Shown piece by piece: positions 4,269 through 22,507 of a stretch of DNA of 23,634 nt. A program made the translations under genes and the position numbers. Each line of letters starts with the position of its first letter. Positions within the stretch are counted from its first letter, which is position 1. This stretch comes from Bdellovibrionota bacterium FG-2 (GTDB taxonomy: Bacteria > Bdellovibrionota > UBA1018), in the NCBI GenBank assembly GCA_051382305.1, contig JBBCAV010000384.1:1-23634 (forward strand), read 5' to 3'. The notes beneath the pieces were generated by a model that was given only the letters and a program-made list of their open reading frames with translations, was not told where the DNA came from and did not search any database.

Positions 4269-4691
4269 ATGCCAAGCGGTTGGGAAATTTACTACGTTAT
4301 TCTATTGTCGGCGACCCTCGCTTTGGGGTTTCCAATTATATTGGCGATATTTTTATTCATTATCATACCTAAAAAAAGAAAATTTCGCAGGGCTCAAAAT
4401 GCGAAAAAAAATAACCAGGCGCGGCCCGTTGTTCGCAGTCTTCTTGGGCGCAGGATTAATGTCCGATTCTATCTTTCGGCAAATGCGGCATTAATATTTG
4501 TTACGCTCTCTTTTGGTTTTGTTCCCTGCGTGGGGGCAATTCAAAAAGAGAGCGAAAGAATGGATGTGGTGGCGGCGATTGTTTCCTTATGCTGCTTGGG
4601 CGTTTTCTCCGGTGTTGGGTTGTTATATGCTATTCGAAAAGGCGATTTAAGCTGGTTGAGATCTTATCATCGGCATGAGGATGAGTTATAA
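4269..4691 (+). CDS. nuoA: NuoA-like subunit, divergent copy 1 (lacks the ECG loop motif and the D/E of FDVE)
   Basis: Three hydrophobic segments; RINVRFYL matches R.SVRFYL and YAIRKGDLSW matches YxxRKxALxW; first gene before nuoB. FDVE is replaced by FVTL. Confidence 0.8.
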   Translation: MPSGWEIYYVILLSATLALGFPIILAIFLFIIIPKKRKFRRAQNAKKNNQARPVVRSLLGRRINVRFYLSANAALIFVTLSFGFVPCVGAIQKESERMDVVAAIVSLCCLGVFSGVGLLYAIRKGDLSWLRSYHRHEDEL

Positions 4692-5164
4692 TGGAGTCCT
4701 CAATCTACGATTCCACCTTGGGGAGGGTCTTGCGTTGGGCTCGCTACAGCTCCTTTTGGTATATTTCTGTCGGAGGTGGGTGCTGTGCTGATGAGCCGCT
4801 TCACACGGTGGGTTGTCGTTATGATCTAGAGCGGTTCGGGTGTGTTCCACAATCGGAACCCAGGCAGGTTGATCTTCTCATTGTCAACGGTGTGATCACA
4901 TATAAGGCGTTGCCCTATTTGCGTTCCTTTTATGATCAGATGCTAGCCCCCAAGTATGTGATGTCGATTGGCTCCTGCGCGAATTGTGGGGGGCTTTTTA
5001 GTCCCGATAATAGTTATTCCGTGGTCCCTGGGGTAAATAAGATTATTCCCGTGGATGTTTATGTTCCCGGTTGCCCGCCCCGTCCCGAAGCCATCATGAA
5101 TGGACTTCTAGCACTTCAGGAAAAAATACGTGGATATAATAGAGCTGAAAAAAAATTTATCTGA
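4691..5164 (+). CDS. nuoB: NuoB-like Fe-S (N2) subunit, copy 1
   Basis: GCCADE, RYDLERFG, PRQVDLLIV, YDQMLAPKYVMSIGSCA, VDVYVPGCPPRPEA. All four N2 cysteines are present. TAATG overlap with the upstream gene. Confidence 0.95.
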   Translation: MESSIYDSTLGRVLRWARYSSFWYISVGGGCCADEPLHTVGCRYDLERFGCVPQSEPRQVDLLIVNGVITYKALPYLRSFYDQMLAPKYVMSIGSCANCGGLFSPDNSYSVVPGVNKIIPVDVYVPGCPPRPEAIMNGLLALQEKIRGYNRAEKKFI

Positions 5165-5648
5165 CGCACTTTCAGGCAGAATCTTGCAGTTCGGACAGCT
5201 CGGCCGGGACGGGGTTCTCTCTGTCTGGATTGAAGCGAAGCATATTGATGAGGTGGCCCTTTTGCTTCGGAATGAATTGTTGCTGGACTTTTCGAGTTTA
5301 GAAAATTTCTTTGTGGCGCAGATAGATTCGGCTCTCATTCTAAGTTATTTTCTGTGTTCTCCAAAAAACCATGCTGAAGTCATTCTCCGGGCGTCGGTTG
5401 TCCCTCAGAATCCAGATGCAAAAGTCAGGGTGCCGTCGGTGCGTGAAATTTGGCCTATGATAGAACATCAAGAACGGGAGAGTTCAGAGCTGTTTGGGCT
5501 TTCCTTCTTCTTGGGGCTCACGCCCAACGAGACCCCGGAAGGAGAACAAAAATTTCTTCCTTCAGGGTGGGAGGGTTTTCCTCTTCGCAAGGAATATACT
5601 TTTCCGGAAACCTTCCTGAGTGTTAGGCACCAACCGGAGGTAGAATGA
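5130..5648 (+). CDS. nuoC: NuoC-like subunit, divergent copy 1
   Basis: VPSVREIWP, ERESSELFG (canonical ERExxDxFG), WEGFPLRKEY (canonical GHPLRKD). GTG start overlaps the nuoB 3' end by 35 nt, so the exact start is uncertain. Confidence 0.88.
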   Translation: MDIIELKKNLSDALSGRILQFGQLGRDGVLSVWIEAKHIDEVALLLRNELLLDFSSLENFFVAQIDSALILSYFLCSPKNHAEVILRASVVPQNPDAKVRVPSVREIWPMIEHQERESSELFGLSFFLGLTPNETPEGEQKFLPSGWEGFPLRKEYTFPETFLSVRHQPEVE

Positions 5649-6778
5649 ATTTCCCTCTTTTCGGCGAGCGGCTTAAAACAGACATAACGAGCTGGGAAGT
5701 GGGCCCCTACCATTTAGCGCTCCCCGCCCCGATGAAACTATCATTGAAACTCGATGGCGAAGTGATTGTTTCTGGGGAAGTTGAGACGGGATTTTTGCAT
5801 CGAGGGCTTGAGAAGTGTTTTGAGCGCCATTCTTGGCGCTCTGCACTTCCTTATGCGGATCGACTGGACCCCGAGGCGGCGGTTTTTGGAGAACTCGTGT
5901 ATTGCCTGGCGGTTGAAGAGATTGCAAACATACTTATTCCCCCAAGAGCCCAGGCAATTCGAGTGATTCTTTCAGAACTAACGCGAATTTCGGGTCACCT
6001 GGGAAGTGCAATTCGGGTTGCGCGAGCGGTGGGTGCAGAAAAAATTCAACACTACATTTTGAGGGATCGAGAGAAAATTACAGACCTTTTTGAGCTTTTG
6101 ACAGGAGCCAGATTCTCTCTAAATTTTCTTCGGATCGGTGGCGTGAGGGCAAACGTTACAGATGGCTTTATTGAGCGGGTGCTTGATATTTGTGATCTCG
6201 TTCGCATTCGACTTAAAGAGTACAATGACTTGTTTACCTTTAATCACGCTTTTCTAAAGCGCACGATGAATGTGGGGGTTCTTTCGCCAAAGATGGTAAG
6301 AAAATATGGAATTACCGGACCCAGCGCGCGTGCCTCAGGCCTTATGATGGACGCGCGAAAGGATCGGCCCTATTGTGGATATGAGATTCTTGATTTTGAG
6401 GTTCCACTTGGACAAGGAGAGGGTGGGACGTTAGGTGATGCACATGAGCGATTTTTAATAAGACTTCGGGAAGTTTCTCAAAGCATTGAGATTCTTAGGC
6501 AGGTGACCGAGGGGTTGCCAAGTGGAGAATATATCTCTCAAACGGACGAGCTTATGGTCCCAGAGGGCGAGGCGTATGTCCGTGTTGAAAGTTCGCGTGG
6601 GCTCTTAGGATGTCATTTAATATCTCTCGGGGGGGCGTCGCCCCATCGGGTTCAATTTAGGACGCCAAGTGGTTTTCATCTCCTCTCAATCCCAGAGTTA
6701 GTTGTGGGTCTTAAATTAGAAGATTTGTCAGTTGTCTTGGCGAGTCTTGATCTCTCTATAGCGGAGGCAGATCGATGA
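5645..6778 (+). CDS. nuoD: NuoD-like (49-kDa family) subunit, copy 1, quinone-site residues absent
   Basis: GPYH, LDGEVI, GFLHRGLEK, DRLD, SELTRISGHL, TGAR, IGGV, GPSARASG, RTPS and C-terminal LDLSIAEADR. No hydrogenase CxxC motifs. GGAGG RBS and ATGA overlap. Confidence 0.93.
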   Translation: MNFPLFGERLKTDITSWEVGPYHLALPAPMKLSLKLDGEVIVSGEVETGFLHRGLEKCFERHSWRSALPYADRLDPEAAVFGELVYCLAVEEIANILIPPRAQAIRVILSELTRISGHLGSAIRVARAVGAEKIQHYILRDREKITDLFELLTGARFSLNFLRIGGVRANVTDGFIERVLDICDLVRIRLKEYNDLFTFNHAFLKRTMNVGVLSPKMVRKYGITGPSARASGLMMDARKDRPYCGYEILDFEVPLGQGEGGTLGDAHERFLIRLREVSQSIEILRQVTEGLPSGEYISQTDELMVPEGEAYVRVESSRGLLGCHLISLGGASPHRVQFRTPSGFHLLSIPELVVGLKLEDLSVVLASLDLSIAEADR

Positions 6779-7851
6779 ATGGTCATGGGCCTCAGTGGAG
6801 CGCACTTTTGCAGCACCTATTTGGATTACGGGGTTCCTACCCACAGTGGTTCCTCGCTTTAATAGGTCTCGCAGCCGTATACTTGGGTCTAGTGGTTCCT
6901 GGTGCGTGGTTTGTTTCCTATGTTGATCGAAAACTTGGAGCAGACTTTCAAGCTCGCGTGGGGCCTAATCGTGCGGGACCGTCCGGATTTTTTCAACCCT
7001 TAGCGGACTTCTTGAAGCTGTTGCAAAAAGATGCCCAAGAAAAAATAACGGGTGGAGACCTACTATGGATGGTTATTTTTACGTCTGCACTTTATTCGAG
7101 CGTCGCTGTGATTCCATTGGGCGCGTCTTTTATCTTTGTTGATACGGATTTGAGCGCGTTCATTCCATTCTGGTCTGCGCTCATCTTAGCTCTCGGAACG
7201 ATGTTACTAGGTTTTAGCCGACCGACAGTACCGGGCTGGTTTGGTGCGATAAAGGTTGCGGGACAGGCTTTTTCTGGGGCGTTTCCGGCTTTAGTTTCGT
7301 TGGTGACGGTTGGAATTAGAGCGGGCGGATTTCGCTGGAGTCGCCTGGTTGGTTCGCAGGGGGTTTTCCCAGCAGAATGGGCCGCTTTCTCAAATCCGTT
7401 TCAGTTTTTAGCCCTCCTCGTGTTCATGATTAGCGGTCTTGTGATGATGAGTTTGCCGCCGATGGATGGCGTGATCTCCTCTTACAATATGAATGGCGGA
7501 GTGATTTCGCATCTCTTTGGCAGGCGTTGGGCGATTTTTAGGTTGGGGCGGTTTTATGCGTTTTTTCTTTGGTGTCTAGTGGGGTCTGCCTTGTTCTTGG
7601 GAGGCTGGCAGCTTCCGGCGCGTGTCACTGAAGTTTTGTTAGATTCTGTTGTCTTAAGGCAAGGAGTTGAGTCGATTTTACTTTTAACAAAGACCTTTAT
7701 TTTGATGGTCGTTGTTATTTGGGTTTCTCGAGTTAATTCAAGAACCCGCGTAGATCAGGTTACCGATTTTGCTTGGAAGGTTCTGTGTCCGTTCGCATTG
7801 GTGGCCCTGATGGGGTCTGCCCTTTGGGCGGGGTGGGAGCTCATCCTATGA
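6775..7851 (+). CDS. nuoH: NuoH-like membrane subunit, divergent copy 1
   Basis: DRKLGADFQARVGPNRAGPSGFFQPLADFLKLLQKD, LFLGGW, RTRVDQVTDFAWKVLCP. GGAGG RBS and ATGA overlap with the nuoD-like gene; no nuoEFG in between. Confidence 0.92.
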   Translation: MNGHGPQWSALLQHLFGLRGSYPQWFLALIGLAAVYLGLVVPGAWFVSYVDRKLGADFQARVGPNRAGPSGFFQPLADFLKLLQKDAQEKITGGDLLWMVIFTSALYSSVAVIPLGASFIFVDTDLSAFIPFWSALILALGTMLLGFSRPTVPGWFGAIKVAGQAFSGAFPALVSLVTVGIRAGGFRWSRLVGSQGVFPAEWAAFSNPFQFLALLVFMISGLVMMSLPPMDGVISSYNMNGGVISHLFGRRWAIFRLGRFYAFFLWCLVGSALFLGGWQLPARVTEVLLDSVVLRQGVESILLLTKTFILMVVVIWVSRVNSRTRVDQVTDFAWKVLCPFALVALMGSALWAGWELIL

Positions 7852-8381
7852 GTGGTTCTATTTTTATCTCGTGCATTACATATTTGCGAGACGTATTTTC
7901 AGGGGCTCGCTCGATTCTTGAGTCTTGTGTTGCGGCGATTCCTTATCTCTTCAGTGCCGGAGAAAATAGAAAAGAAGTAACCGAGCAATATCCTGATCCG
8001 ATTTCTTCGCGGACTGCGGACGATTTGCCTTCGCGATCTCGGGGGATTCTGTTTAATGATATCGATCGATGTACGGGCTGTCGAGAGTGTGAAAAAATTT
8101 GCCCAAATAGGAGCATATTCATCGAAACTCAGTCGGGATCTGACCCCGCTAAGATTTGGGTTTCTGTCTTTGATATTGATTTGTCAAAATGTGTCTTCTG
8201 TGGCCTTTGCGTTGATGTGTGTGTTCCTGAATCGATCGTGCATACCAAACAATATGAGGGGGCGGTCTATATCCTTGATGATTTGAAAGCAAGCTTTGGT
8301 CGCGGTGGGGTCACACCTGAAATGCAGGCCCGCTGGGCCGCGAACCGCCGGGCGAATGAGTCAGAAGGGGGGGGATTTTGA
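7848..8381 (+). CDS. nuoI: NuoI-like 2x[4Fe-4S] subunit, copy 1
   Basis: VTEQYP, CTGCRECEKICP and CVFCGLCVDVC (8 Cys). ATG at 7848 overlaps the nuoH stop (ATGA) and follows GGGAG, so it is preferred over the track's TTG start at 7773. Confidence 0.92.
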   Translation: MSGSIFISCITYLRDVFSGARSILESCVAAIPYLFSAGENRKEVTEQYPDPISSRTADDLPSRSRGILFNDIDRCTGCRECEKICPNRSIFIETQSGSDPAKIWVSVFDIDLSKCVFCGLCVDVCVPESIVHTKQYEGAVYILDDLKASFGRGGVTPEMQARWAANRRANESEGGGF

Positions 8382-8923
8382 TTTTAGTTGGATTTTCATT
8401 AGTAGCTGTTTTTTGCGCCATTTTTGCGGCCTTTTCGAGCGATATAAAGCGCGCGATTTTAGCCCTTTGGGTTTGTGGCCTTGGAATGGGGGCGGTCTTT
8501 CTCGGCCTTGGAATGGAGTTTCTTGCTGTAATTCAATGGATCGTGAGCACGTTGGTCGCGGTTGCCTTTGTCTTTTTTTTGGTCATGTTTGGTGAATTTG
8601 AACAAAGGATGGAAGGGGTTCCAAGAGAGCCTAAAAGAGTTCAAAATAAAATCGAGAGGGCCCTTCCCTTAGGCCTTGGTGCGGTTTTTTGTGTAATTTT
8701 TGTTATGGCCTTGGAACAGATAAAGGGGTCTGCTGAAAAGATAGATGAGATTCTTAAGGGTGGAGTGGTGAGTGGAGTCGATCTTTCTGTTTTTGGAAAA
8801 GTTTTTATGAGGGAGCACTTCTTGTCTCTTCAAGTCTTAGCTTTGATGTTACTCTTAGTGATTGTGGGTGGGGGTGTGATCGCACGCCCAGAGGCACCCA
8901 GGGACAATAAGGAGGGAATATGA
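8378..8923 (+). CDS. nuoJ: NuoJ-like subunit, divergent copy 1
   Basis: Five hydrophobic segments; EFLAVIQWIV (canonical xFLAxxQIxVY), FGKVFMREHFLSLQVLALMLL (canonical G..LF..YxLPFExxSxxLL); position between nuoI and nuoK. TTG start in a TTGA overlap after a G-rich RBS. Confidence 0.85.
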   Translation: MILVGFSLVAVFCAIFAAFSSDIKRAILALWVCGLGMGAVFLGLGMEFLAVIQWIVSTLVAVAFVFFLVMFGEFEQRMEGVPREPKRVQNKIERALPLGLGAVFCVIFVMALEQIKGSAEKIDEILKGGVVSGVDLSVFGKVFMREHFLSLQVLALMLLLVIVGGGVIARPEAPRDNKEGI

Positions 8924-9210
8924 TCCTCGCATTGCCCGGCATTATTGGTGGGATTGGTTTAGCCTGCATCATCTTTAGAAAAACATTATTGGGGGTTCTT
9001 ATCGGGGTTCAGCTCCTCATTCTTGGTGCCGTAGCAGCGGTAGTGATGGCTGGAATTGTATCGGGTCGACAGGTATCGGGCCATGTGTCGGGCGTTCTAA
9101 TATTTTTAAGTGGAGTTGCACTAGTTGCTCTGGGCTTTGCTTTAGCAATTCGGATGTTTTATTTACGGAGAAGAATTTCAATGTCTGAACTCCGCACTCT
9201 GAGACAATAA
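8920..9210 (+). CDS. nuoK: NuoK-like subunit, divergent copy 1 (both membrane Glu absent)
   Basis: 96 aa with three TM segments; RKTLL..IGVQL matches RRNxx..SIEL, ALGFAL matches AIGLAL, C-terminal ELRTLRQ. TAAGGAGG RBS at 8908-8915 and ATGA overlap. Confidence 0.82.
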   Translation: MILALPGIIGGIGLACIIFRKTLLGVLIGVQLLILGAVAAVVMAGIVSGRQVSGHVSGVLIFLSGVALVALGFALAIRMFYLRRRISMSELRTLRQ

Positions 9211-9213
9211 TTA

Positions 9214-11133
9214 ATGGAAGACGTAAATAACCTAAAAATTCTGAGTCTTGGGATCTTCGGTGCCATTCTTTTTGGCTTAAGTCTCTTTTTCCTGAAGAAG
9301 GAGTTTCAGAAATACACGAGATGGATTTTCTTTTTTGTTTTGTTGTTTTTTTTTGGCGTGGTGCTTTTTGTGGCCACCGCGCAGGATCCCATTTTTGCAC
9401 CCGCCGATTGGAGCCGGGGCTGGGTGTTGCCTCGTGATGCCTTAGGTGCGATTACAGCAGGCTTTCTGGTTGATGCTCAAGCTTTCCTGGGCTTGTTTTT
9501 CGCGACAGCCCTAACAGCACTCTTGGGAGGTTTCTTAAGTATTCGCGCCGATACGCCTTCTTGGGCGCGAGTTATTCCTTCTTTTTTGGTGAGCCTAGGC
9601 GGTTTTTCTATCAGTGTTACCGCGCTGACGCCCTGGATGGTCTTTATCGGGTTCTTTATTTCAGTTTTTGGTGGGGCGGTTGTTCTGGGTGCTAAATGGA
9701 AAACTGACGCAGACTCCATGTTGGGCGTTCGGTTTGCATGGGAGAGAAGTAGTGGTTTGTTTTGTTCGATATTTGGGGCTTGCGTTTTGGCGGCCACCCA
9801 ACCCCCCCTTCTCTTAAATCACCAGGTTGCGGGGGTCGAGCCGTTGGGCGGAGCCCTGCTTCTATTGGGGCTTTTCTCTCAGTTTCAATCTTTTCCGTTT
9901 TCGGCGCGACGATTAGCGCAACGTCAGGTTCCGTTGGTGGCCAGCGTCCTCGTTGCACAGGTTTTACCCGGTTGGGCCGTGCTCTTTTTCTTGGCGCGAT
10001 TCGAACCAAGCCTCACGGGGTCCACTATTGTTTTGGTTTACGGGTGGATCTCCCTCTTTTCTGCGGTCCTTTCGACCGGCGAAGGACTGTTTCAGTCTGA
10101 GAGTCCCAGAGGGATTACGATTTGGGTTTCGGCGGGCTTTGCTTTTGCTTCCGCTTTGTTTGCCTTTTCTGGAGCTCAGGCGGGTTTTGTTTGGGGACTG
10201 GGGGTCGGTCTAGGGGGCATTTCTCTTTCTCTTTTTGCCGAAAATGGGCGAGGCCAAAAAACGGAAAAGAAAACTGTAAACAAGCAAAACAACGGGCTTC
10301 TTGTTCTGATTTCGAGCTTCCTCTCCTGCGCGGCGGGAACGGGTTTTCTTGGTTTTGTCTCGAGCATCGGAGGGCATCAGTGGTTTACACAGGGGCTTGA
10401 AAGCGCGCCGATGGCCGCAAGTTTTAGTGTGGCTCTATTTTGTCTGGCTTTCTTGGGATGGAAGAACTTTTTTCAACTCAACCGCATACAGTCTGGCCCT
10501 ACCGTACCCTTGGTTACGGCTGTTTTATCTCTTTTTGTGGTAAGTCTCTCGTTAAGTGTTTTCTGGGACGGCACCCTCTTTGGGGGGGTTGTCTTAGAGG
10601 GGGCGGATTCTATCTTTCCATCGATTTTGAGGAAAATATTTATTCAGCTGAGGCCCATTGCGCAGAAAAGTGATATGGCGATCGTCGCTTCGGGGGGGTA
10701 TTTTGGGATCGCTCTTTTCGCTTTTTTTACAGCTTATTGGGGATTCGGACGAAAGCGCGACGTTTTGTCGGACGTAGCAAAGAAGTTTGTGCGGATGTTT
10801 GGAGTTGTGTCAGATGGATATGGGATAGATAGACTATTTGCAGGCGCGCTACGATTTCTTATATTTATAAGTGAGCGCCTTTACCGTAGAATTGATCAAG
10901 TGTTTTGGGGCCGGTTGTTGCCGGCGGGTTTTTCAAGAATTATTGAAAAGGGTTCACAGGTAATTACAGTGATTGACCTACGGTTCTTTGTAAGGTTGTC
11001 GGCCGCGCTGCGAGGAGCAGTTGAGCTTCCCGCTAAGGCCTTGCAGTTAATCCAGAATGGAAATGTGCAGTGGTATCTTTTTTTTGCAGTCGCTTCTGGA
11101 ATCGCAGTTTTACTAAATTTCTTAAAAGGTTGA
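9214..11133 (+). CDS. nuoL: NuoL-like antiporter-family subunit, extremely divergent copy 1
   Basis: 639-aa polytopic protein between the K- and M-like genes. Recognisable remnants: GFLVD (beta-hairpin/TM3), LGAKW...ER (IGxW...NR), AAGTGFLGFVS (GxPxxxGFxSK), and the NuoL-specific C-terminal lateral helix with GYGIDRL...IDQ...LQLIQNGNVQWY. Confidence 0.78.
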   Translation: MEDVNNLKILSLGIFGAILFGLSLFFLKKEFQKYTRWIFFFVLLFFFGVVLFVATAQDPIFAPADWSRGWVLPRDALGAITAGFLVDAQAFLGLFFATALTALLGGFLSIRADTPSWARVIPSFLVSLGGFSISVTALTPWMVFIGFFISVFGGAVVLGAKWKTDADSMLGVRFAWERSSGLFCSIFGACVLAATQPPLLLNHQVAGVEPLGGALLLLGLFSQFQSFPFSARRLAQRQVPLVASVLVAQVLPGWAVLFFLARFEPSLTGSTIVLVYGWISLFSAVLSTGEGLFQSESPRGITIWVSAGFAFASALFAFSGAQAGFVWGLGVGLGGISLSLFAENGRGQKTEKKTVNKQNNGLLVLISSFLSCAAGTGFLGFVSSIGGHQWFTQGLESAPMAASFSVALFCLAFLGWKNFFQLNRIQSGPTVPLVTAVLSLFVVSLSLSVFWDGTLFGGVVLEGADSIFPSILRKIFIQLRPIAQKSDMAIVASGGYFGIALFAFFTAYWGFGRKRDVLSDVAKKFVRMFGVVSDGYGIDRLFAGALRFLIFISERLYRRIDQVFWGRLLPAGFSRIIEKGSQVITVIDLRFFVRLSAALRGAVELPAKALQLIQNGNVQWYLFFAVASGIAVLLNFLKG

Positions 11134-11142
11134 GAGGGTAAA

Positions 11143-12657
11143 TTGAATAACCATTTTTTAAGTTTGATGATCATCCTCCCGTTGGCGGGAGCGGTTTTGC
11201 AAATGGGGATTTCGAAAAAAATGGCGCTCGCAGGTTTCGCGCGTTGGGGGGCATTGATTTCGAGCATCGCGGCGAGTCTGGTGGGTGTTGTTCTCGTTTT
11301 CTCCATGGACCGACAGACGCCAGACTTACAGTTTACAGAGAGTCTTTCTTGGGTAGGCTCTTATGCAATTCATTATGAGTTAGGTTTGGATGGTCTCAAT
11401 GCGCTTTTGGTTCTCTTGGTTTCAATTATTTTCCCTGTATTGCTTGCTGCTGAATGGAATCAAAAAACAGGGTTGCGCGGAATGCACGGACTGTTTCTGA
11501 TTCTCCAATGCGCCTTTTTTGGTGTGGCGGTTGCTCAAGATCTGTTCCTGCTATTCTTTTTTTGGGGCTTAAGTGCGATGCCCTTTTATTTCTTGGTGGG
11601 AATTTGGGGGGGGGAAGGCCGAGAAAGTGCCGCCTTTCGTTCGGTTGTCGCGTCCGCCATTGGAAATTGCTTTTTGTTTGCCGCGCTTATTCTCGTCTAC
11701 TACTCAGCGGATCCGCATAGTTTTTCAATAAGAGACCTTTCGGGTGGAAGGTTTTCTGGAAAAAGTTTTTTCTTTTTTGGACGGGAAATTTTGGTGTCGA
11801 GTGCGGCATTTGTTTTGATGAGTTTAGGGCTCGCATGTCGCGCGCCTATTTGGCCATTGCATGGGTGGTTTTCAAATGTCGCCAAAGAAGCGCCCCCTAC
11901 CGTTTTTATTTCTCTCGCGGCCGTAACGGTTCCTGTGGCTATCTATATTTTTGTTCGGCTCTCGTATAGTCTCTTTCCGGAGATGCTCTTGGGAACAGGA
12001 AATGTCATTGTTTTGGTTGGTGCCGCTAATCTCGTGATGGGTGGCATTTTTGCGGTCGCCCAAAAAGGCTTAAGGCTTTTACTTGCCTTCCTTTGTCTTA
12101 GCGGCGTGGGTCTTGCCCTTATTGGGGTTGGTTCATTGCAGTCGGCTGGGGTTGTTGGCGCAGTGTTTCACTTGTTGGTTTTTGGACTGGGCCTTTGTGG
12201 TTTCGGCCTGTTTGCGGGTGTTATCGCCTCCCGTTCCGGGCACTCAATGTTTTTGAAGGAGCAGCGGCAGCGCAGTTTTGGTGGCCTTGCCACGGTGACT
12301 CCCATGATCGCAGTAGTTGCGGGTGTTTTTATTGCTTCGCTTCTGGGAATTCCGGGCTTCGGCGGATTTGTTGGAAACGCGCTTCTGATCATTGGAAGCT
12401 ACTCCGTTCATCCTGCGATGGTCATTGTAGCAGGTCTGGCACTTTTGCTTTCTACCTATTTTCTTTTTACGATGTATCGATGTGTTTTTTTTGGAGAACC
12501 CAACACGGCGCTTGAGAATTTCTCTGATCTAACGCTTAGGGAAAAGTTCTATTTTCTCCCTCTGGTTGCGGGCTTGATTTTCGCTGGAATCTACCCCAAA
12601 CCACTTTTAGAGCTTGTGAGACCTACGGTTCTCACTTTACTGTCGACGATAAAATAG
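11143..12657 (+). CDS. nuoM: NuoM-like antiporter-family subunit, divergent copy 1
   Basis: YELGLDGLN, DLFLLFFFW..MPFYFLVGIWG, PIWPLHGW, FGGLA...P, SLLGIPGFGGFVG, DLTLRE, GIYPKPLL. TTG start after GAGGG. Confidence 0.92.
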   Translation: MNNHFLSLMIILPLAGAVLQMGISKKMALAGFARWGALISSIAASLVGVVLVFSMDRQTPDLQFTESLSWVGSYAIHYELGLDGLNALLVLLVSIIFPVLLAAEWNQKTGLRGMHGLFLILQCAFFGVAVAQDLFLLFFFWGLSAMPFYFLVGIWGGEGRESAAFRSVVASAIGNCFLFAALILVYYSADPHSFSIRDLSGGRFSGKSFFFFGREILVSSAAFVLMSLGLACRAPIWPLHGWFSNVAKEAPPTVFISLAAVTVPVAIYIFVRLSYSLFPEMLLGTGNVIVLVGAANLVMGGIFAVAQKGLRLLLAFLCLSGVGLALIGVGSLQSAGVVGAVFHLLVFGLGLCGFGLFAGVIASRSGHSMFLKEQRQRSFGGLATVTPMIAVVAGVFIASLLGIPGFGGFVGNALLIIGSYSVHPAMVIVAGLALLLSTYFLFTMYRCVFFGEPNTALENFSDLTLREKFYFLPLVAGLIFAGIYPKPLLELVRPTVLTLLSTIK

Positions 12658-12669
12658 AAGGAGGCGATA

Positions 12670-14151
12670 GTGAGAGAGCTTATTGCATTTCTTCCAGAGA
12701 TCATTTTGAGCATCACCTTGCTCTCTATTATTTTTGCTGAAATTACCTATCAGGGTTCGCGCGTTCGGTTTACGACACTTATTGCCTTGTTGGGTTTGTC
12801 TGCAGCCTTTCTTCAGACGCTCGTGGCGCTTAATTACGGACCGACCTTTATTTTTGGAAAAGTTCTCGTGATTGATGGGTTGTCTCTATTCTTTAATCTG
12901 TTCTTTACAGCCCTAGGGGCACTTGCAGTTATTTCGGCCGTTCAGGTCAAAGAAATCTCAAGATCCACGCGGACGGAGTATTGCGCTCTTGTTGTGGCGG
13001 CCTGCCTGGTGATGTGTCTGGCTGCCTCGGCGGCCGATCTTCTCCTTTTATTCCTGTCGCTCCTGTGTGTTAATATTGTGTTTTCGGTCCTTGCCGCATT
13101 TGGAAAAAGATCCATTCTTTCTATCGAGGCCGGGATTAAGTATTTACTATTTTCAGTGGTCTCGGTTGGTTTTTTACTCTTCGGAATCGCTCTAATTTTT
13201 GCCGCGACACATGAGCTAAATATTTACGAAATTCATCGCGCTATTCTTACTCATTCGGTCGACCCCAGAGTCATGTTTGTGACCTTTCTATTTTTCTTTT
13301 TTGCTATTGGTTTTCAAGTGGCGGCTTTTCCATTCTATCTATGGGCACCGGATGTAGTTGAGGGTGCGCCCACCCCCGTCTCGTCATTTTTAGTTTTGGG
13401 TTCGCGCGGGGTGGGTTTTGCGGTGTTATTAAGGCTCGTCTTGGTCCTGCTTTCCGAGCCGACCCAAGCTGGGGCCGCAGGGGGAGAACTTCGTCATTTG
13501 GTTGCTGATTTTGATTGGCCAAAAGTATTGGCAAATCTCGCGGGATTTTCAATGTTGTTTGGAGCTCTTCTTGCGCTACGCCAAAAAGGTGCAAAGCGAA
13601 TGGTGGGGTGTTTGGCAGTTTCTCAAACTGGATTTTTTCTAATGGCGCCTCTTGTTTTGGATCAGCAAGGGGTCGCTGCGTTAATGTACAATCTCGTGAT
13701 TGAGGTTTTTGCGCTTACGGGAATCTTTTTCGTTCTCTCGGTGTTTTATGACGAAATGCGTTCAGACCGATTAGTGGATTTCAAGGGGATCTTGGGTAAG
13801 GCCGTTTTGGAATGTATCTGTTTAATTCTGTTTCTTCTTTGTTTGGTTGGCATCCCTCCCCTTCCCGGGTTTATTGGAAAGTTTGCTTTGGTGGGATCTG
13901 CTGTGCAGCACGGGTGGATTGCTCTTGCGGCTATTGCGATCTTTTCGATGGGGGTTTCCATGGCGGCAGTGGCCCGATTCATTTATGCGATGATCTCAGA
14001 TTTTCGTAAACCTGTGGAAGCTGGGTTGAGGTTTGGTTTTAGGGGAAGAATGTTTCTGTTTTCGTTGGTGGTCCCAATGCTCCTTTGTGGCGGGTTTGCT
14101 GAAGTCATTTTTCAATGGGCTGGCAAGCATTTAGGTTCAATTTTATGGTAG
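12670..14151 (+). CDS. nuoN: NuoN-like antiporter-family subunit, divergent copy 1
   Basis: LPEIIL, IDGLS, TEY, SIEAGIKY, AAFPFYLWAPDVVEGAPTPV, KRMVG, GIPPLPGFIGKF. GTG start after AAGGAGG (12658-12664). Confidence 0.93.
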   Translation: MRELIAFLPEIILSITLLSIIFAEITYQGSRVRFTTLIALLGLSAAFLQTLVALNYGPTFIFGKVLVIDGLSLFFNLFFTALGALAVISAVQVKEISRSTRTEYCALVVAACLVMCLAASAADLLLLFLSLLCVNIVFSVLAAFGKRSILSIEAGIKYLLFSVVSVGFLLFGIALIFAATHELNIYEIHRAILTHSVDPRVMFVTFLFFFFAIGFQVAAFPFYLWAPDVVEGAPTPVSSFLVLGSRGVGFAVLLRLVLVLLSEPTQAGAAGGELRHLVADFDWPKVLANLAGFSMLFGALLALRQKGAKRMVGCLAVSQTGFFLMAPLVLDQQGVAALMYNLVIEVFALTGIFFVLSVFYDEMRSDRLVDFKGILGKAVLECICLILFLLCLVGIPPLPGFIGKFALVGSAVQHGWIALAAIAIFSMGVSMAAVARFIYAMISDFRKPVEAGLRFGFRGRMFLFSLVVPMLLCGGFAEVIFQWAGKHLGSILW

Positions 14152-14185
14152 CCGGCTGAGGTCTGTTGGGGCTATAAACGTCTAT

Positions 14186-14545
14186 ATGGCATACATTCCC
14201 GTTTTGATCTTACTGGGCCTTGGTCTGGCAGTGGGTGGTGCAGTTCTAGTTCTTACTCATCTTATTGGAACTGGTATTCCGAATAGGAAGAAGAACCAAC
14301 CCTTCGAGTGTGGTGTTCCTGGTATGGGAGATGCGCGACATCGGGTCTCTGTTCGCTTTTATCTCGTTGCGATCCTATTTCTCCTTTTTGACGTCGAGGC
14401 GATTTTCTTTTTCCCTTGGGCCTTGGTTTTTAAAAAGTATTTGAGCATCAATTCTTTTATTCTTCTGGAAATGGCATTTTTCGTGGCGATTTTTCTTGTT
14501 GGATATTTCTATGTGCTGCGGAAGCGCGCGCTCGATTGGGATTAA
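14186..14545 (+). CDS. nuoA: NADH-quinone oxidoreductase subunit A, canonical copy 2
   Basis: KNQPFECG, RVSVRFYLVAILFLLFDVEAIFFFPWA, YVLRKRALDWD. Confidence 0.97.
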   Translation: MAYIPVLILLGLGLAVGGAVLVLTHLIGTGIPNRKKNQPFECGVPGMGDARHRVSVRFYLVAILFLLFDVEAIFFFPWALVFKKYLSINSFILLEMAFFVAIFLVGYFYVLRKRALDWD

Positions 14546-14554
14546 GGAGCCTTT

Positions 14555-15070
14555 ATGTCTAAAGACGGATCAGCATCATTCTTTACTACCCGCTTTGAAG
14601 CGGTTTTAGATTGGGGACGCAAGAATTCTCTGTGGCCCCTTCCGTATGGAACCAGTTGTTGTGGAATTGAAATGATGTCCACGCTCTGTTCCGATTACGA
14701 TATGTCCCGCTTTGGAGCGGAGGTTGTGCGGTTTTCTCCTCGCCAGAGTGACTTATTGATTGTTGCTGGCATCATTACAACCAAAATGGCGCCTGTCTTG
14801 AAGACGGTCTATGATCAAATGAGTGATCCAAAATATGTGATGTGCGCGGGGGCGTGCGCGTCTTCAGGTGGTATTTTTAACGTTTATAGCGTCCTACAGG
14901 GGATTGATACAATGATTCCGGTAGATGTATATTTACCTGGCTGTCCACCTGCTCCCGAAGGGTTTCTGCACGGCCTTCTTCAATTGCAGGAAAAGATTGC
15001 GCGAGGGGAAACGCATTCACATCGAAAATTAGCAGAATTTAAGCGCGGCAATGCTCTGTCTTCATTATAA
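14555..15070 (+). CDS. nuoB: NADH-quinone oxidoreductase subunit B, canonical copy 2
   Basis: [49 protein letters not shown]. Confidence 0.97.
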
Positions 15071-15091
15071 GGGCACATAGAGGATCACACC

Positions 15092-15658
15092 ATGGACGTA
15101 AGAACACCGATTCCAACAAACGGCGGCGAGGCGATCAAGAAATTCGGCGAGGCTTGGCGCAAGCAAATCGCGCTTCTTCAGGTAAAATTTTCTGCGGATT
15201 TGAAGAAAGTTCTGTTCCCAGGCGAGGCCGCAACAGATTTTCCCATCATTTATGTTTCCAAGGACAAGCTAATTGAGATTTTGAAGTTTTTAAAAAAAGA
15301 GGCGGGTTTTGAGTACGACTTTCTTGCGGACCTTACTGCGACCGACGAGGAGTTAGTGCCCAGGTTTGAGCTCGTTTACAATCTTTTTTCCACAACGCAC
15401 AAGCACCGTATTCGTGTAAAAGTAGCCGTTCACGAGGGGGAGGATGTTCCAACTGCTATCTCGGTTTGGCCGGGCGCAAACTGGGCCGAACGAGAAGTGT
15501 ATGATATGTTCGGAATTAAATTTCAGGGTCACCCCGATTTACGAAGGCTTCTCATGGATTATCGCTACGTTGGGCATCCGCTTAGGAAAGATTTCCCATT
15601 AAGGGGCTATCAACTATTTACCGAACCCCAAGAGATTGACCCGAAACTGTTGGATTAG
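15092..15658 (+). CDS. nuoC: NADH-quinone oxidoreductase subunit C, canonical copy 2
   Basis: LADLTATD, RFELVYNL, ANWAEREVYDMFGIKFQGHPDLRRLL, GHPLRKDFPL. Confidence 0.97.
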   Translation: MDVRTPIPTNGGEAIKKFGEAWRKQIALLQVKFSADLKKVLFPGEAATDFPIIYVSKDKLIEILKFLKKEAGFEYDFLADLTATDEELVPRFELVYNLFSTTHKHRIRVKVAVHEGEDVPTAISVWPGANWAEREVYDMFGIKFQGHPDLRRLLMDYRYVGHPLRKDFPLRGYQLFTEPQEIDPKLLD

Positions 15659-15686
15659 TGTTTTCTAAATAAAGGCACAGAATAAA

Positions 15687-16937
15687 ATGCAAAACAGTAA
15701 AGAAACAAAACCGGGAAGTATAGAGTTTCCAAGTGGCATTCGAGTCGATCACGATCCAGATGATTTGTGGGGGGATTCGCGATTTGTCGTGAATATCGGG
15801 CCCACTCATCCGGCCATGCATGGCGCGCTAAGAATGGTCGCGCGGCTTAATGGAGAAACCATTGAAAACTCGTATTGTGAAATGGGCTATACCCATCGAG
15901 CAAAGGAGAAGTTGGGAGAAAATCGGACCTACCATCAGTTCGTCGTCTATACCGATCGTCTGAACTATTGCTCCTCCTTAATGAATAACGTGGGCTATTC
16001 GCTCGCAGTTGAAAAGCTCATGGGAATTGAGGTTCCGGAGCGGTGTATTTGGCTTCGGATGATTGTGTCAGAGATTTCTCGCGTCATTGATCACCTCGTT
16101 TGCGTTGGGATTAATGCTGTTGATTTAGGTGCTTTTTCATATTTTCTCTATGGTTATCACCAGCGCGAAGAGGCCTACACGCTCATCGAAAAACTTTGTG
16201 GGGCTCGCCTTACCGGATCCTATACTCGTGTTGGCGGACTCATGCAGGATGCGCCTGACGGATTTGAGCGCGAGGTAAAGGCCTGGGTCAATAAAACCAG
16301 AACCGTTTTGGATGAGATGGACCGTCTTCTTACTGGAAACAAGATTTGGCAGAAACGAACGGTGGGCGTTACTCCATTCAATAAAGAACAGTGTTTACAA
16401 TATAGTTACAGTGGGCCCAACGCAAGAGCGGCAGGCCTAGATATTGATCTGCGTCGCGATCAGCCTTACCTGTATTATAAGGATGTCGAATTTGATGTCC
16501 CCATTTGTCAAAACGGGGACACTTTTGATCGATATATTGTGAGGATCCATGAGATTCGGCAATCTCTGAATATCATTACCCAGTGTGCAGATCGCATAAA
16601 AAAGGGGCCGATTTGGACCGAAGATAAACGTGTGCGCATTCCTGATAAAGACGTCGTACATAATACAATGGAAGGTTTGATCTATCACTTTAAGTTCTTC
16701 ATGACGGGTTTTGATGTTCCGCCCGGTGAAGCCTATACTGCGATTGAGGCCTCAAATGGGGAGTTGGCTTTTTACATCGTCAGCAAAGGTGGACCCAAAG
16801 CGCACCGCATGCGAATTCGCGGACCCTCCGTATGGCATTATCAGGGTGTTTCTCCCATGGTAAAGGGCTGGAAGATTGCGGATTTAATTGGGGCTCTGGG
16901 CAGCATTAATGTGATTGCAGGCGAGTTGGATCGGTAG
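15687..16937 (+). CDS. nuoD: NADH-quinone oxidoreductase subunit D, canonical copy 2
   Basis: NIGPTHPAMHGALR, DRLNY, AVDLGA (His/Tyr/Asp quinone triad intact), MEGLIYHFK, GELDR. Confidence 0.97.
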   Translation: MQNSKETKPGSIEFPSGIRVDHDPDDLWGDSRFVVNIGPTHPAMHGALRMVARLNGETIENSYCEMGYTHRAKEKLGENRTYHQFVVYTDRLNYCSSLMNNVGYSLAVEKLMGIEVPERCIWLRMIVSEISRVIDHLVCVGINAVDLGAFSYFLYGYHQREEAYTLIEKLCGARLTGSYTRVGGLMQDAPDGFEREVKAWVNKTRTVLDEMDRLLTGNKIWQKRTVGVTPFNKEQCLQYSYSGPNARAAGLDIDLRRDQPYLYYKDVEFDVPICQNGDTFDRYIVRIHEIRQSLNIITQCADRIKKGPIWTEDKRVRIPDKDVVHNTMEGLIYHFKFFMTGFDVPPGEAYTAIEASNGELAFYIVSKGGPKAHRMRIRGPSVWHYQGVSPMVKGWKIADLIGALGSINVIAGELDR

Positions 16938-16961
16938 GCGTGAATTCGGCGGAGGATTGAA

Positions 16962-17438
16962 ATGGCAGAAAAAATACTTTCTAAAAAGTTTTATGATCAG
17001 ATGAAAAAATTGGAGCCCCGCTATCCCAATAAGGTAGCGCTTCTTATTCCCGCGCTTCATGCTGCTCAAGATGAGACGCGCTGGCTTTCGGATGCGGTGA
17101 TGGATGAAGTGGCGGGGTATATCGGAATTCATCCCGCACAAGTTCGAGAAGTAGCGAGCTTTTATACGATGTTTAATCTTAACCCCGTAGGAAAATACCA
17201 TTTAAAACTTTGCACAAATGTCGCCTGTTGTTTGCGAGGCGCAGATGAAGTGATGAAACATCTTGAAAAGAAGTTAGGAATTAAGTGTGGAGAAACGACT
17301 GCCGACAATAAAATCACCCTTATGGAAGAAGAGTGCCTGGGTGCATGTGGAACTGCTCCGGCAATGATGTTGAACGATGATTACCATGAAAATCTAGATA
17401 TTCAGAAGATGGATCGTCTTCTGAGTTCTTTGGAGTGA
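16962..17438 (+). CDS. nuoE: NADH-quinone oxidoreductase subunit E ([2Fe-2S] N1a)
   Basis: VASFYTMF, CTNVAC, ECLGACGTAP. GGAGG RBS. Confidence 0.97.
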   Translation: MAEKILSKKFYDQMKKLEPRYPNKVALLIPALHAAQDETRWLSDAVMDEVAGYIGIHPAQVREVASFYTMFNLNPVGKYHLKLCTNVACCLRGADEVMKHLEKKLGIKCGETTADNKITLMEEECLGACGTAPAMMLNDDYHENLDIQKMDRLLSSLE

Positions 17439-18733
17439 GTGCTATGTCAGAAACCGCGGAAGAAACAGTAGAAACGATGTTTATCCAGCACTTCCAAGAG
17501 GAGTCGCGTCCCTTAGGCTATTATCTAAAAAATATGGACGGTTATAAGACCGCGAAGAAAGCGTTCGGGATGTCCCAGGACGACATCATTGGCGAAATGA
17601 AAAAATCTTGGCTCCGGGGTCGTGGGGGCGCATCCTTTCCTACGGGAACAAAGTGGGGATTTATTCCCAAACAATCCCCCAAGCCAAAATATCTAGTATG
17701 CAACGCGGATGAGTCCGAGCCGGGGACCTTTAAGGATCGCGATATTATGCGATATACCCCCCACCTTCTTATTGAGGGCATAGTCATTGGTGGGTACGCG
17801 ATCGGCGCACATATTGGATATATTTACATTCGTGGAGAGTATGCTCGCGAAGCGAAGCTCTTGAATGAGGCCATTGAGGAGGCATACGCCGCTGGATGGC
17901 TTGGTAAAAATATCCAAGGGAGCGGATTTGATTTCGATTTGACCGTCCATCGCGGGGCCGGAGCCTACATTTGTGGCGAAGAAACTGCACTCCTTAATTC
18001 ACTTGAAGGAAAAAGGGGTGAGCCCAGAGTTAAACCTCCTTTTCCTGCTCAGGCAGGGGCGTTCGGAGGTCCAACGATCGTTAATAACGTAGAAACTTTG
18101 GCTTCTGTCCCCTTCATTATTAAGAACGGTGGCGATTGGTATGCGAAGCTTGGAAAATTAGAAAAATCCGGCGGGACACGGCTTTTTTGTGTCTCAGGCC
18201 ATGTCAAGAAACCCGGGGTTTATGAGTTTCCTTCCGGATCTGTTACATTACGTCAAATCATCTATGAGCACTGTCATGGGATTCTGGGAGACAAGAAACT
18301 TAAGGCAGTGATTCCGGGGGGATCGTCCGCCCCGGTTTTAACTGCAGATGAAATTGATGTCGTGGCTGATATTGAACCGTTGGCAAAAATTGGAACCATG
18401 TTGGGCTCCGCGGCCCTCATCGTAGTGAGTGAAGACTATTGCCTCGTAAAACTCCTCAAGAGGATCGCACATTTTTATGCCCACGAGTCCTGCGGTCAGT
18501 GCACGCCTTGCCGAGAGGGAACGCGCTGGATGTGGGATATTATTGAACGCATTGAAGAAGGGCATGGTCGAGAACAAGATATACAGATGCTCCTGGACAT
18601 CTCCGAAAATGTAAGCATGAAAACTTTGTGCGCTCTCGGGGACGCGGCCGCAGGGCCCGTGATGAGCTTTGTTAAAAAATTCAGAGCCGATTTTGAAGCG
18701 CATATTCGAGGTGGCAAATGCCCAAATGTATAA
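17435..18733 (+). CDS. nuoF: NADH-quinone oxidoreductase subunit F (FMN, N3)
   Basis: LRGRGGASFPTG, NADESEPGTFKDR, GAGAYICGEETALLNSLEG, ESCGQCTPCREG, CALGD. Start is either GTG 17435 (GTGA overlap) or ATG 17444 (GGAG 8 nt upstream). Confidence 0.97.
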   Translation: MSAMSETAEETVETMFIQHFQEESRPLGYYLKNMDGYKTAKKAFGMSQDDIIGEMKKSWLRGRGGASFPTGTKWGFIPKQSPKPKYLVCNADESEPGTFKDRDIMRYTPHLLIEGIVIGGYAIGAHIGYIYIRGEYAREAKLLNEAIEEAYAAGWLGKNIQGSGFDFDLTVHRGAGAYICGEETALLNSLEGKRGEPRVKPPFPAQAGAFGGPTIVNNVETLASVPFIIKNGGDWYAKLGKLEKSGGTRLFCVSGHVKKPGVYEFPSGSVTLRQIIYEHCHGILGDKKLKAVIPGGSSAPVLTADEIDVVADIEPLAKIGTMLGSAALIVVSEDYCLVKLLKRIAHFYAHESCGQCTPCREGTRWMWDIIERIEEGHGREQDIQMLLDISENVSMKTLCALGDAAAGPVMSFVKKFRADFEAHIRGGKCPNV

Positions 18734-20130
18734 TTGACGGGCGCGAGGCGGAGTTTAAGCCTGGCGAAAATCTCATTGAGGTTGCGAAACGTGTTGGGGT
18801 AGAAATCCCGGTATTTTGTTATCATCCTGGCTTGACCGTCGTAGCGCAGTGTCGAATGTGCGCGGTTGAAATTGAGAAGAACCCAAAACTTCAAACGGCT
18901 TGCTCCACGCCGGCAACTGAGGGAATGGTGGTTCACACGACTACGCCTAAGGTTGTTCAAAATCAAAAAGCGATAATGGAGTTCTTGCTTATTAATCATC
19001 CACTGGACTGTCCGATCTGCGACAAGGCGGGAGATTGTGATCTCCAAGACAATTCTTATAAATTTGGCAGTCCCTATTCTCGTTACACAGAAGAACGCCG
19101 TACGTACCTTGATCTCGATATGGGCCCGGTCATTAAAAAGAACATGAATCGCTGCATTCACTGCACGCGATGTATCCGTTTTGGCGACGAGATTGCGGGT
19201 ATTCGCGAGATGGTGGCCACGAAACGCGGAAACTGGACAGAGATTTCAACTTTAAATACAAACCCCCTTGCGACGGAATACGCGGGAAATTATGCGGATA
19301 TTTGTCCAACAGGCTCCCTTACCGTAAAAGACTTTCGCTTTAAGAAGAGATCGTGGCTTCTAAAAAAGACCCCAACGATTTGTGAGGGATGTTCTCGGGG
19401 GTGTGCCATTGAGGCACAACAAGACGGTAATGTAGTTTATCGTTGCCTGGCGCGAGAAAACCTCGCTGTTAATAAATATTGGATATGCGATGAGGGGAGG
19501 TTCAATTTTCATTACGTGCATGACGCCTCTCGGGTTCTTGAGCCCGCACAAAAAGGTGGCGCTTCTCTAGGCCCCACAAGTTGGGAGCAAGCGCTTGAAG
19601 TTGTTCGGGACGTAACGGCAGGTAAGAAGCTCCTGGTGCTGGTGGGATCTGATCTTACATTAGAAGAAGGTCAGCAGATCTTGGATTTCGCTAAAGCTAA
19701 GTATTCTTCGGCCTCCGTTTACCACTTTGGCACACCTGGAATTGGAATGACTAAAGAGGACGCTCAGGCCGATCCTATTTTAAAGATGAAAAGCAAAACC
19801 TCGAATCTTAACGGAATGGCAAATCTTGGAATTAAGCCATTTGATGGCGCGCTTTCTGGTTTCGACATTGCGGCGGTCTTCCGGGGAGGTAGAGCGATAG
19901 TGCCAGAGCTTAAGAGCATGAAGCGGGTTGGCATAGGCGTATTCAATCTTCCCCAAGCTGAAAAATATGAGGCGGTACTTCCAAGTTTGAGCTTCCTTGA
20001 AAAAGCTGGGACAATTGTCAATTTCCAGGGAATAGAACAAAAACTCAAGCCGGCGATTAAGCCCCTTGGGCAAAGCAAAGCCATTTCAGAGATTTTGATG
20101 ATGTGGGCTAACGGCGGGAAAAAGGTGTGA
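18718..20130 (+). CDS. nuoG: NADH-quinone oxidoreductase subunit G, short form (470 aa) with N1b, N5, N4 and N7 motifs
   Basis: CYHPGL..AQCRMC..TAC (N1b), HPLDCPICDKAGDC (N5), CIHCTRC...DICP (N4), CEGCSRGC...WICDEGRF (N7), C-terminal LPSLSFLEKAGTIVNFQG. Confidence 0.95.
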   Translation: MPKCIIDGREAEFKPGENLIEVAKRVGVEIPVFCYHPGLTVVAQCRMCAVEIEKNPKLQTACSTPATEGMVVHTTTPKVVQNQKAIMEFLLINHPLDCPICDKAGDCDLQDNSYKFGSPYSRYTEERRTYLDLDMGPVIKKNMNRCIHCTRCIRFGDEIAGIREMVATKRGNWTEISTLNTNPLATEYAGNYADICPTGSLTVKDFRFKKRSWLLKKTPTICEGCSRGCAIEAQQDGNVVYRCLARENLAVNKYWICDEGRFNFHYVHDASRVLEPAQKGGASLGPTSWEQALEVVRDVTAGKKLLVLVGSDLTLEEGQQILDFAKAKYSSASVYHFGTPGIGMTKEDAQADPILKMKSKTSNLNGMANLGIKPFDGALSGFDIAAVFRGGRAIVPELKSMKRVGIGVFNLPQAEKYEAVLPSLSFLEKAGTIVNFQGIEQKLKPAIKPLGQSKAISEILMMWANGGKKV

Positions 20131-20140
20131 GAGGCATATA

Positions 20141-21226: not shown

Positions 21227-21229
21227 GCT

Positions 21230-21673
21230 ATGCTTGTTAAAAACAAGAAGTCTATTTGGTACGAAATTTACGTCGTCGATATCCTAAAGGGTCTCTATAT
21301 TACGATGAGGAACATGCTTTTTGCCCCCAGCGTGACGATTGAGTATCCCGAGGTTCGGCGGAACTACTCGGATCGGTTCAGAGGTATGCACTATATCAAG
21401 TCCGTAAATGGCGTTGAAAATTGTACGGCGTGCATGCTTTGTCCGACGGTCTGTCCTGCTGAGTGCATTCATATTGAGGCGGGAGAGCGGCCCGATAAAG
21501 AAAAGTATCCTGTTAAGTTCGAGGTTGATCTTTTGCGCTGCTGCTTTTGTGGAATGTGCGAAGAGGCGTGCCCAAAAGACGCCATAAAGTTGAGTAACAT
21601 TTACGAAATGTCCGTTAGCAAGAGAACGGTCTATGACAAGGCTTATTTAGCCGAACAGCGGGGGAACAAATAA
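21230..21673 (+). CDS. nuoI: NADH-quinone oxidoreductase subunit I, canonical copy 2
   Basis: TIEYPE, RFRGMH, CTACMLCPTVCP, RCCFCGMCEEACP. Confidence 0.97.
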   Translation: MLVKNKKSIWYEIYVVDILKGLYITMRNMLFAPSVTIEYPEVRRNYSDRFRGMHYIKSVNGVENCTACMLCPTVCPAECIHIEAGERPDKEKYPVKFEVDLLRCCFCGMCEEACPKDAIKLSNIYEMSVSKRTVYDKAYLAEQRGNK

Positions 21674-22502: not shown

Positions 22503-22507
22503 CCCAA

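Follow-up and report, generated by a model that had tools for sequence, protein, structure and literature searches.

A tandem complex I paralogue of Bdellovibrionota with a neutralised membrane arm: a candidate non-pumping redox derivative

In canonical complex I, as in E. coli and T. thermophilus, the antiporter-like subunits NuoL, NuoM and NuoN carry Glu in transmembrane helix (TM) 5, Lys in TM7, Lys or His in TM8 and Lys or Glu in TM12; the enzyme also has NuoK E36/E72, NuoA D79/E81, an acidic loop in NuoH, and a His and a Tyr in NuoD. Its coupling mechanism is still disputed, in a debate fed largely by point mutants of these same residues. Here we describe a relative of this enzyme encoded by Bdellovibrionota bacterium FG-2, in a stretch of 23,634 nucleotides (assembly GCA_051382305.1, contig JBBCAV010000384.1) that is called the window below and is one whole 23.6-kb contig from a 4.3-Mb, 85%-complete assembly. 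The window holds two nuo clusters, copy 1 and the canonical copy 2. In its 11 core subunits and their gene order copy 1 agrees with E. coli, T. thermophilus and copy 2, and it has in common with them the folds of L (lateral helix included) and N and the iron-sulfur (FeS) ligands of NuoB and NuoI. It differs in having no NuoE, NuoF or NuoG of its own, in replacing all of the axis residues of L, M and N except NuoN K395, and in replacing the NuoK, NuoA, NuoH and NuoD residues. Copy 1 descends from a Nuo-type complex I; judged by sequence, it lacks four testable defining features of the proton-pumping enzyme, and we do not file its antiporter-like subunits as a functional NuoL/M/N set.

Other relatives share some of these traits. 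Ferredoxin-dependent NDH-1 of cyanobacteria and plastids is, like copy 1, an 11-subunit core without an N-module, and NdhF chains are the best PDB matches of copy-1 L in both sequence and fold; however, NdhF keeps Glu, Lys and His where copy-1 L has none (profile alignment), and NDH-1 has Ndh-specific accessory genes, none of which lies near copy 1. Ehr and MBS/Mbx are complex I relatives of unclear function whose catalytic subunit is without the ancestral active-site ligands, a loss that copy 1 shares; according to passages of the same source, the Ehr catalytic subunit is related to the large subunits of group 4 NiFe hydrogenases but has no Ni-Fe ligands (PMC6349859). Unlike Ehr, copy 1 includes NuoA, NuoJ and NuoK, has its genes in the nuo order, and is neutralised in its antiporter-like subunits. 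Identity with Ehr was rejected: at E <= 0.001 no hydrogenase model recognises copy-1 NuoD, whose matches are confined to models of NuoD, FpoD and NdhH (NF004739 of NCBIfam scoring best, with 344.6 bits). Mrp antiporters have PF00361 in common with M and N, which also give weaker NCBIfam matches to MrpD, but the conserved Glu/Lys pair of MrpA/MrpD, as cited in passages of the literature, is missing from copy 1. Identity with Mrp was likewise rejected, given a nuoA-K context without mrp genes and far higher scores of M and N on NuoM and NuoN models. No description of the copy-1 paralogue turned up in searches of the literature.

Copy-1 L, M and N were aligned by MAFFT with NuoL, NuoM and NuoN of E. 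coli K-12 (NC_000913), whose numbering is used for canonical residues, and with the genome's two other copies. The numbering of the Glu/Lys pairs (L E144/K229, M E144/K234 and N E133/K217) is backed by passages of PMC13073174 and PMC3046159. The swaps in M are E144 to G142, K234 to R233, H248 to A247, K265 to P264, H322 to G321, H348 to F347 and E407 to N412; those in N are E133 to L132, K217 to Q216, H224 to Y223, K247 to R246 and H305 to Q319, with K395 retained as K404. An earlier note, based on the sequence alone, had listed the same M and N substitutions, and the alignment reproduced them with the same residue numbers. The four-sequence alignment was unreliable for L, and its positions were read after adding 22 orthologues: E144 is F148, K229 is Q223, H254 is A248, K342 is G334 and K399 is S384, leaving no titratable residue at these positions. 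The losses that the note had given for these five L residues were recovered, whereas its change of D178 to Gly appears in one alignment (G181) and is L182 in the other, neither of them acidic. By comparison, the E. coli residue is present in 64 of 64 canonical NuoM sequences from other phyla at six of the seven M positions and in 63 of 64 at the seventh, and the axis residues of copy-2 L, M and N are all canonical.

Altogether 1 of 19 axis positions is kept in the window's L, M and N (NuoN K395), against a baseline of 127 of the 398 positions (32%) invariant in three canonical references (binomial P = 0.0067). Charge loss is specific to the axis rather than general, and the charged residues that survive fall outside it.

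The replacements are conserved across orthologues (M, n = 120; N, n = 114; L, n = 116). At the M E144 position the residue is Gly, Ala or Ser, with Glu in 0/120; K234 is replaced by Arg in 120/120 and K265 by Pro in 118/120. The N E133 position holds Gln in 79/114 and Leu in 31/114 and never Glu, K217 is replaced by Gln in 108/114 and K247 by Arg in 103/114. In L, no orthologue has D, E, K, R or H at the E144 or D178 positions (0/116), the K229 position is Gln in 71/116, with any of these five residues in 5%, and at the K399 position they occur in 2%. The isosteric neutralisation (such as K to Q) seen in the single sequence by the earlier note is therefore a trait of the family.

Neutralisation is also wider than the three subunits that the note considered, extending to the entire membrane arm as well as to the quinone site. 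NuoK E36 is replaced by Gln in 18 of 21 orthologues and E72 by Gln in 16 of 21 (Q and L, respectively, in the window), while NuoA D79 and E81 are V and L in the window and hydrophobic in nearly all orthologues (one Thr). In the SYE and PFD...LEY...AEY motifs of NuoH, six of the seven acidic residues checked are replaced in the window, with A, I, S, N, H and R at the six Glu positions and only the Asp of PFD retained. NuoD has a deletion of about 26 residues. Two of its residues, which we take to be the quinone head-group ligands, have both become Pro, in the window as well as in 18 of 20 orthologues: the Tyr of YTDRxxY and, in HPxxHG, the second His. The FeS ligands, by contrast, persist: the four Cys of NuoB that bind N2 in 19-20 of 20, and the seven counted Cys of NuoI (N6a/N6b) in 22 of 22, the eighth reaching at least 90% in the consensus. 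Copy-1 NuoD orthologues also have a conserved motif, ES.RGlLgCH, which brings in a Cys-His that is absent from the canonical counterpart, E-A-x-x-G-E-x-x-x-Y; it is similar to the motif with an Arg in the large subunits of NiFe hydrogenases, and may mark a remodelled active site.

Given that the electron wire and the folds are kept while nearly all known proton-handling residues, from the quinone site as far as the tip of L, have been replaced, with the replacements under selection, a derivative that no longer pumps is the best explanation. The reading we favour, tentatively and with somewhat less than even confidence, is that copy 1 is a non-pumping, iron-sulfur-bearing redox derivative of complex I whose L/M/N arm is structural, as the sequences and models suggest. 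Copy 1 encodes a complete, L-shaped derivative of 11 subunits (NuoA-D and NuoH-N). In L, M and N, as in the 'E-channel' of NuoH, NuoA and NuoK by which these three are normally driven, the protonatable Glu/Lys/His axis has given way to Gln, Arg, Pro, Gly or Ala. L, M and N would no longer pump protons by the known mechanism, and their arm would have been kept to anchor and shape the redox module. Electrons would pass via N6a, N6b and N2 to the remodelled acceptor site (His/Tyr to Pro) without producing a proton gradient, and the donor could be NuoEFG shared from copy 2, or ferredoxin. We count in favour of this reading that the E. coli NuoN mutants K247A and K395A retain only about 6-35% of activity and of pumping (passages of PMC13073174). 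The proposal of the earlier note that selection has kept the fold while closing proton paths fits the fold models, the purifying selection and the conserved replacements described below and above; as a whole, the note's interpretation is partly supported.

Several observations weigh against a non-pumping derivative. According to passages of the same mutant study, the E133A mutant of E. coli NuoN behaves like the wild type, and 58% of oxidase activity and 88% of pumping remain in K217R (PMC13073174); single axis changes can be tolerated. Glu occupies the M H322 position in 92 of 120 orthologues, 85 of these with His at the E407 position, and the N H305 position in 58 of 114, while K395 survives in 113 of 114; the TM10-12 half is, by its sequence, not fully neutral outside the window's lineage. 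New conserved polar residues (M Q132 in 23/23, M N296 in 22/23 and N N135 in 109/114) give the interior a polar character, so that conduction along water wires would still be possible. Invariant charged residues as a whole were not lost preferentially (17/59 kept, against 110/339 of the others; Fisher p = 0.65), and burial was judged from helix positions only. A search for sequencing runs returned none of RNA.

Much of this would suit a rewired pump, moving H+ or Na+ via M R233, E322 and H407, via N R246, an E319-type Glu and K404, and through Gln/Asn water wires. The near-universal K395, the Glu/His combination at M322/M407, the Glu at N305, the new polar residues in the TM cores and the continued activity of the E. 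coli NuoN K217R and E133A mutants all speak for such a pump. We nevertheless consider it distinctly unlikely: the TM5 Glu is missing from L, M and N in every orthologue examined, the TM8 Lys of M has become Pro, and the NuoK and NuoA carboxylates and the coupling loop of NuoH are lost. Further, on a tree of 20 genomes the residues at M322, M407 and N305 have switched at least 4-6 times. The clade of the window is without M322-Glu, M407-His and N305-Glu, while a supported sister pair has M322-Glu, one member having all three. These repeated changes, together with the loss in the window's clade, indicate that the conserved function of the family does not depend on these Glu and His residues. M322-Glu and M407-His were lost together in several lineages, and N305-Glu tracks both in 8/8 genomes; the co-variation of M322-Glu with M407-His or N305-Glu comprises two independent supported pairs (sign test p = 0.5) and is suggestive only.

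The charged axis residues of the window are all basic (M R233, N R246 and N K404). In this the earlier note, which held that what remains of the axis is basic, was right for the window; it does not hold for the family, where most orthologues have Glu at M322 and about half at N305. The note had also raised, as a speculative alternative, an Arg/Lys-only axis that moves anions or another solute. The same Glu residues make the carboxylate-free axis a peculiarity of one lineage, and nothing points to anions: L has no D, E, K, R or H within its TM-like cores (defined by hydropathy, a crude count), the locus has no transporter-type partner gene or anion-related neighbour, and no member of the antiporter-like superfamily is known to move anions. 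We regard this alternative as very improbable.

As a single sequence, copy-1 L has no match in Pfam, NCBIfam or a PDB phmmer search at E <= 10. Built from 23 orthologues, a profile of its family does match the NdhF chain of a cyanobacterium (6hum_F; E = 1.6e-10), covering residues 12-561 and 581-634, and the AlphaFold2 model (predicted local distance difference test score (pLDDT) 81.4; predicted template-modelling score (pTM) 0.80) has an N-terminal beta-hairpin, broken TM7 and TM12, a lateral helix of 76 residues (538-613) and a C-terminal TM helix. Its best Foldseek matches are NdhF and NuoL chains (template-modelling scores of 0.6-0.7, about 13% identity). The full-length profile match and the match of the model together identify L as having the NuoL/NdhF fold. 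M scores 136 bits on PF00361 (cut-off 21.5) and passes TIGR01972 (307.6 versus 263.8 bits); N scores 148 bits on PF00361 (same cut-off) and falls under the TIGR01770 cut-off (233 versus 332.6 bits). Both are about equally distant from copy 2, copy 3 (see below) and E. coli (27-29%).

In the AlphaFold2 model of N (pLDDT 86.6), L132 lies mid-TM5, Q216 at the TM7 break, R246 mid-TM8 and K404 in TM12b, and the model places all four at the canonical axis sites. Other charged residues of N were considered as buried candidates and rejected. D331, suggested by the hydropathy count, is in the TM10-TM11 turn of the model, E381 is near the start of TM12a, and E153 and K157 are both close to where TM6 begins; the E. 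coli counterpart of K157 is K158, placed by passages of the literature at the cytoplasmic surface.

Homologues of M number more than 350, the best 120 at 54-83% identity, and those with names are mostly Bdellovibrionota, Oligoflexia or Bdellovibrionia; the same is true of N. A search of 1.84 billion proteins with the L profile yields 184 cluster representatives at E <= 1e-30. When species-representative genomes were searched with the M alignment, all matches of at least 41% identity were labelled Bdellovibrionota bar one labelled Enterobacteriaceae, and below this a gap in identity separates them from canonical NuoM, at 31% or less. The exception is a 3.5-kb contig (locus L044) labelled 'uncultured Enterobacteriaceae' with a copy-1-type NuoM at 57% identity, which is probably mis-binned or mislabelled. 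When 301 genomes of the phylum were searched with the L profile, 37 of the 39 in the window's family gave a match at E <= 1e-15, and four further families of the same order gave strong matches (E <= 1e-170); the strong matches are confined to this one order of Bdellovibrionota. Elsewhere in these 301 genomes there were weak matches (1e-16 to 1e-29) in seven genomes, which are probably ordinary NuoL, and families with 12, 29, 38 and 74 genomes searched had none. One named homologue, 'Bdellovibrionota bacterium FG-1', is placed in GTDB class UBA1018 by a 2026 paper; complex I is not discussed in the passages of its main text.

Copy 1 might be a decaying duplicate heading for loss, since several of its subunits evolve 2-6 times faster than those of copy 2 at non-synonymous sites and L has diverged past recognition by Pfam. 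This is scarcely credible. In 22 relatives every copy-1 gene inside the retrieved stretch is open, with no internal stops; the L profile is found in nearly all genomes of the family, as above, and there are hundreds of homologues at 45-65% identity. Between the window and a congener, non-synonymous divergence (dN) ranges over 0.04-0.27 in copy-1 genes and over 0.03-0.11 in those of copy 2, far under a synonymous divergence (dS) that is saturated (proportion of synonymous differences, pS, 0.56-0.79) and that makes a dN/dS ratio unquotable, so that we use dN and a bound. Selection on copy 1 is purifying, with more relaxed constraint on C, J, L and H. Intact orthologues, low non-synonymous divergence and conserved replacements indicate that it is not decaying.

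A further possibility is a pseudo-complex: the whole assembly would be catalytically silent and serve the canonical enzyme of copy 2, downstream, in a structural or regulatory capacity (through hetero-association, membrane organisation or assembly control, for example), and its Cys residues would be kept only for folding. Copy 1 is in strict tandem synteny with copy 2: a copy-2-type nuoA lies shortly beyond copy-1 nuoN, inside the sequence retrieved, in 20 of 22 loci, the other two reaching contig ends, and wherever the contig permits copy 1 lies between mfd and the canonical nuoA-N operon in relatives. In the window the two copies are 34 bp apart, and a scan of this junction (14152-14185) gave no promoter-like or terminator-like match. 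The loss of both the proton axis and the quinone ligands, and the rapid evolution of L, C and J (dN 0.24-0.27, the fastest in copy 1), also fit a silent partner. On the other side, NuoB is as constrained in copy 1 as in copy 2 (dN 0.043 versus 0.050), the FeS Cys counted are near-invariant, and conservation of the Pro/Pro acceptor site in 18/20 suggests a remodelled site that works. A silent partner is in our view unlikely, and a redox derivative that does not pump remains the preferred reading.

Put more broadly, it seems to us an evenly balanced proposition, on sequence grounds, that copy 1 is a natural 'dead-pump' complex I: an 11-subunit assembly kept across an order-level lineage, always encoded together with a live complex I, with nearly all the protonatable residues of its coupling machinery and its quinone ligands neutralised and its arm retained for a non-pumping role. 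That role could be an uncoupled redox bypass that shares the downstream NuoEFG, or that of an obligate architectural partner of the canonical enzyme. Copy 1 may be regarded as evolution's own 'all-neutral' mutant of a whole membrane arm, often isosteric (E to Q, K to Q, K to R) and kept under selection. If made and assembled, it would provide a folded, charge-free reference structure for studies of hydration and conformation, it would mean that an L/M/N arm can be selected for a role besides pumping, and it would raise the question of why a pumping and a non-pumping complex I are paired in one cluster of low-oxygen, probably predatory bacteria. If the reading is true, this would be the first complex I relative with a membrane arm kept for a role other than ion pumping. 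Public sources label the copy-1 genes as ordinary 'NADH-quinone oxidoreductase subunit M/N', and such labels would inflate the proton-pumping capacity predicted in metabolic reconstructions.

The copy-1 genes, eleven abutting or overlapping plus-strand genes spanning 4269-14151 in the order nuoA-B-C-D-H-I-J-K-L-M-N, are listed with their neighbours in Table 1. Genes and families were called from the list of open reading frames (ORFs), Pfam and NCBIfam, and the rest of the genome was searched by tblastn. Within copy 1, nuoD is followed by nuoH with no place for nuoE, nuoF or nuoG, which occur in the window only in copy 2.

Table 1. Positions in the window of the copy-1 genes and neighbouring features
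Feature	Coordinates	Strand	Basis or remark
copy-1 nuoA	4269-4691	+	Pfam, weak, below cut-off
copy-1 nuoB	4691-5164	+	Pfam
copy-1 nuoC	5130-5648	+	Pfam
copy-1 nuoD	5645-6778	+	Pfam
copy-1 nuoH	6775-7851	+	Pfam
copy-1 nuoI	7773 or 7848-8381	+	Pfam
copy-1 nuoJ	8378-8923	+	Pfam
copy-1 nuoK	8920-9210	+	NCBIfam, below cut-off
copy-1 nuoL-like, 639 amino acids	9214-11133	+	family profile and fold
copy-1 nuoM-like, 504 amino acids	11143-12657	+	Pfam PF00361 E = 1.4e-39
copy-1 nuoN-like, 493 amino acids	12670-14151	+	Pfam PF00361 E = 4.9e-43
copy 2, canonical nuoA-B-C-D-E-F-G-H-I-J-K-L	14186-23632	+	L truncated by contig end
mfd-like gene, divergent from copy 1	685-4200	-	conserved left neighbour of cluster

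The start of copy-1 nuoI is ambiguous. The longest ORF begins at a TTG at 7773 and overlaps nuoH by 78 nt, whereas an alternative ATG at 7848 gives a 4-base overlap at the nuoH stop and a protein of 177 amino acids, and the shorter forms of the orthologues have 177-185.

The remainder of copy 2 (the C-terminus of L, with M and N) was found on another contig (C193). Copy-2 NuoJ (21673-22197) has Gln at the position of E. coli E55, and this position is therefore unreliable as a marker of neutralisation. Copy-2 NuoG (18718-20130) is short, at 470 amino acids by comparison with a 2.7-kb gene in E. coli.

A third nuo copy of 11 subunits lies on the minus strand of a further contig (C157, locus L035; 1238-11212). 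Its NuoM has Leu at the position of the TM7 Lys (K234) and its NuoN has Gln at H305, the remaining axis being canonical. Beside it are genes of 620 and 350 amino acids, whose sizes alone suggest, as a guess, a 2-oxoacid:ferredoxin oxidoreductase. Lastly, a Hyf/Mbh-like cluster on the minus strand of contig C190 (locus L037, about 12000-18547) encodes two or three antiporter-like subunits (668 and 483 amino acids) and a large-subunit-like protein of 506 amino acids, bringing the genome's total to four complex I-type membrane modules.

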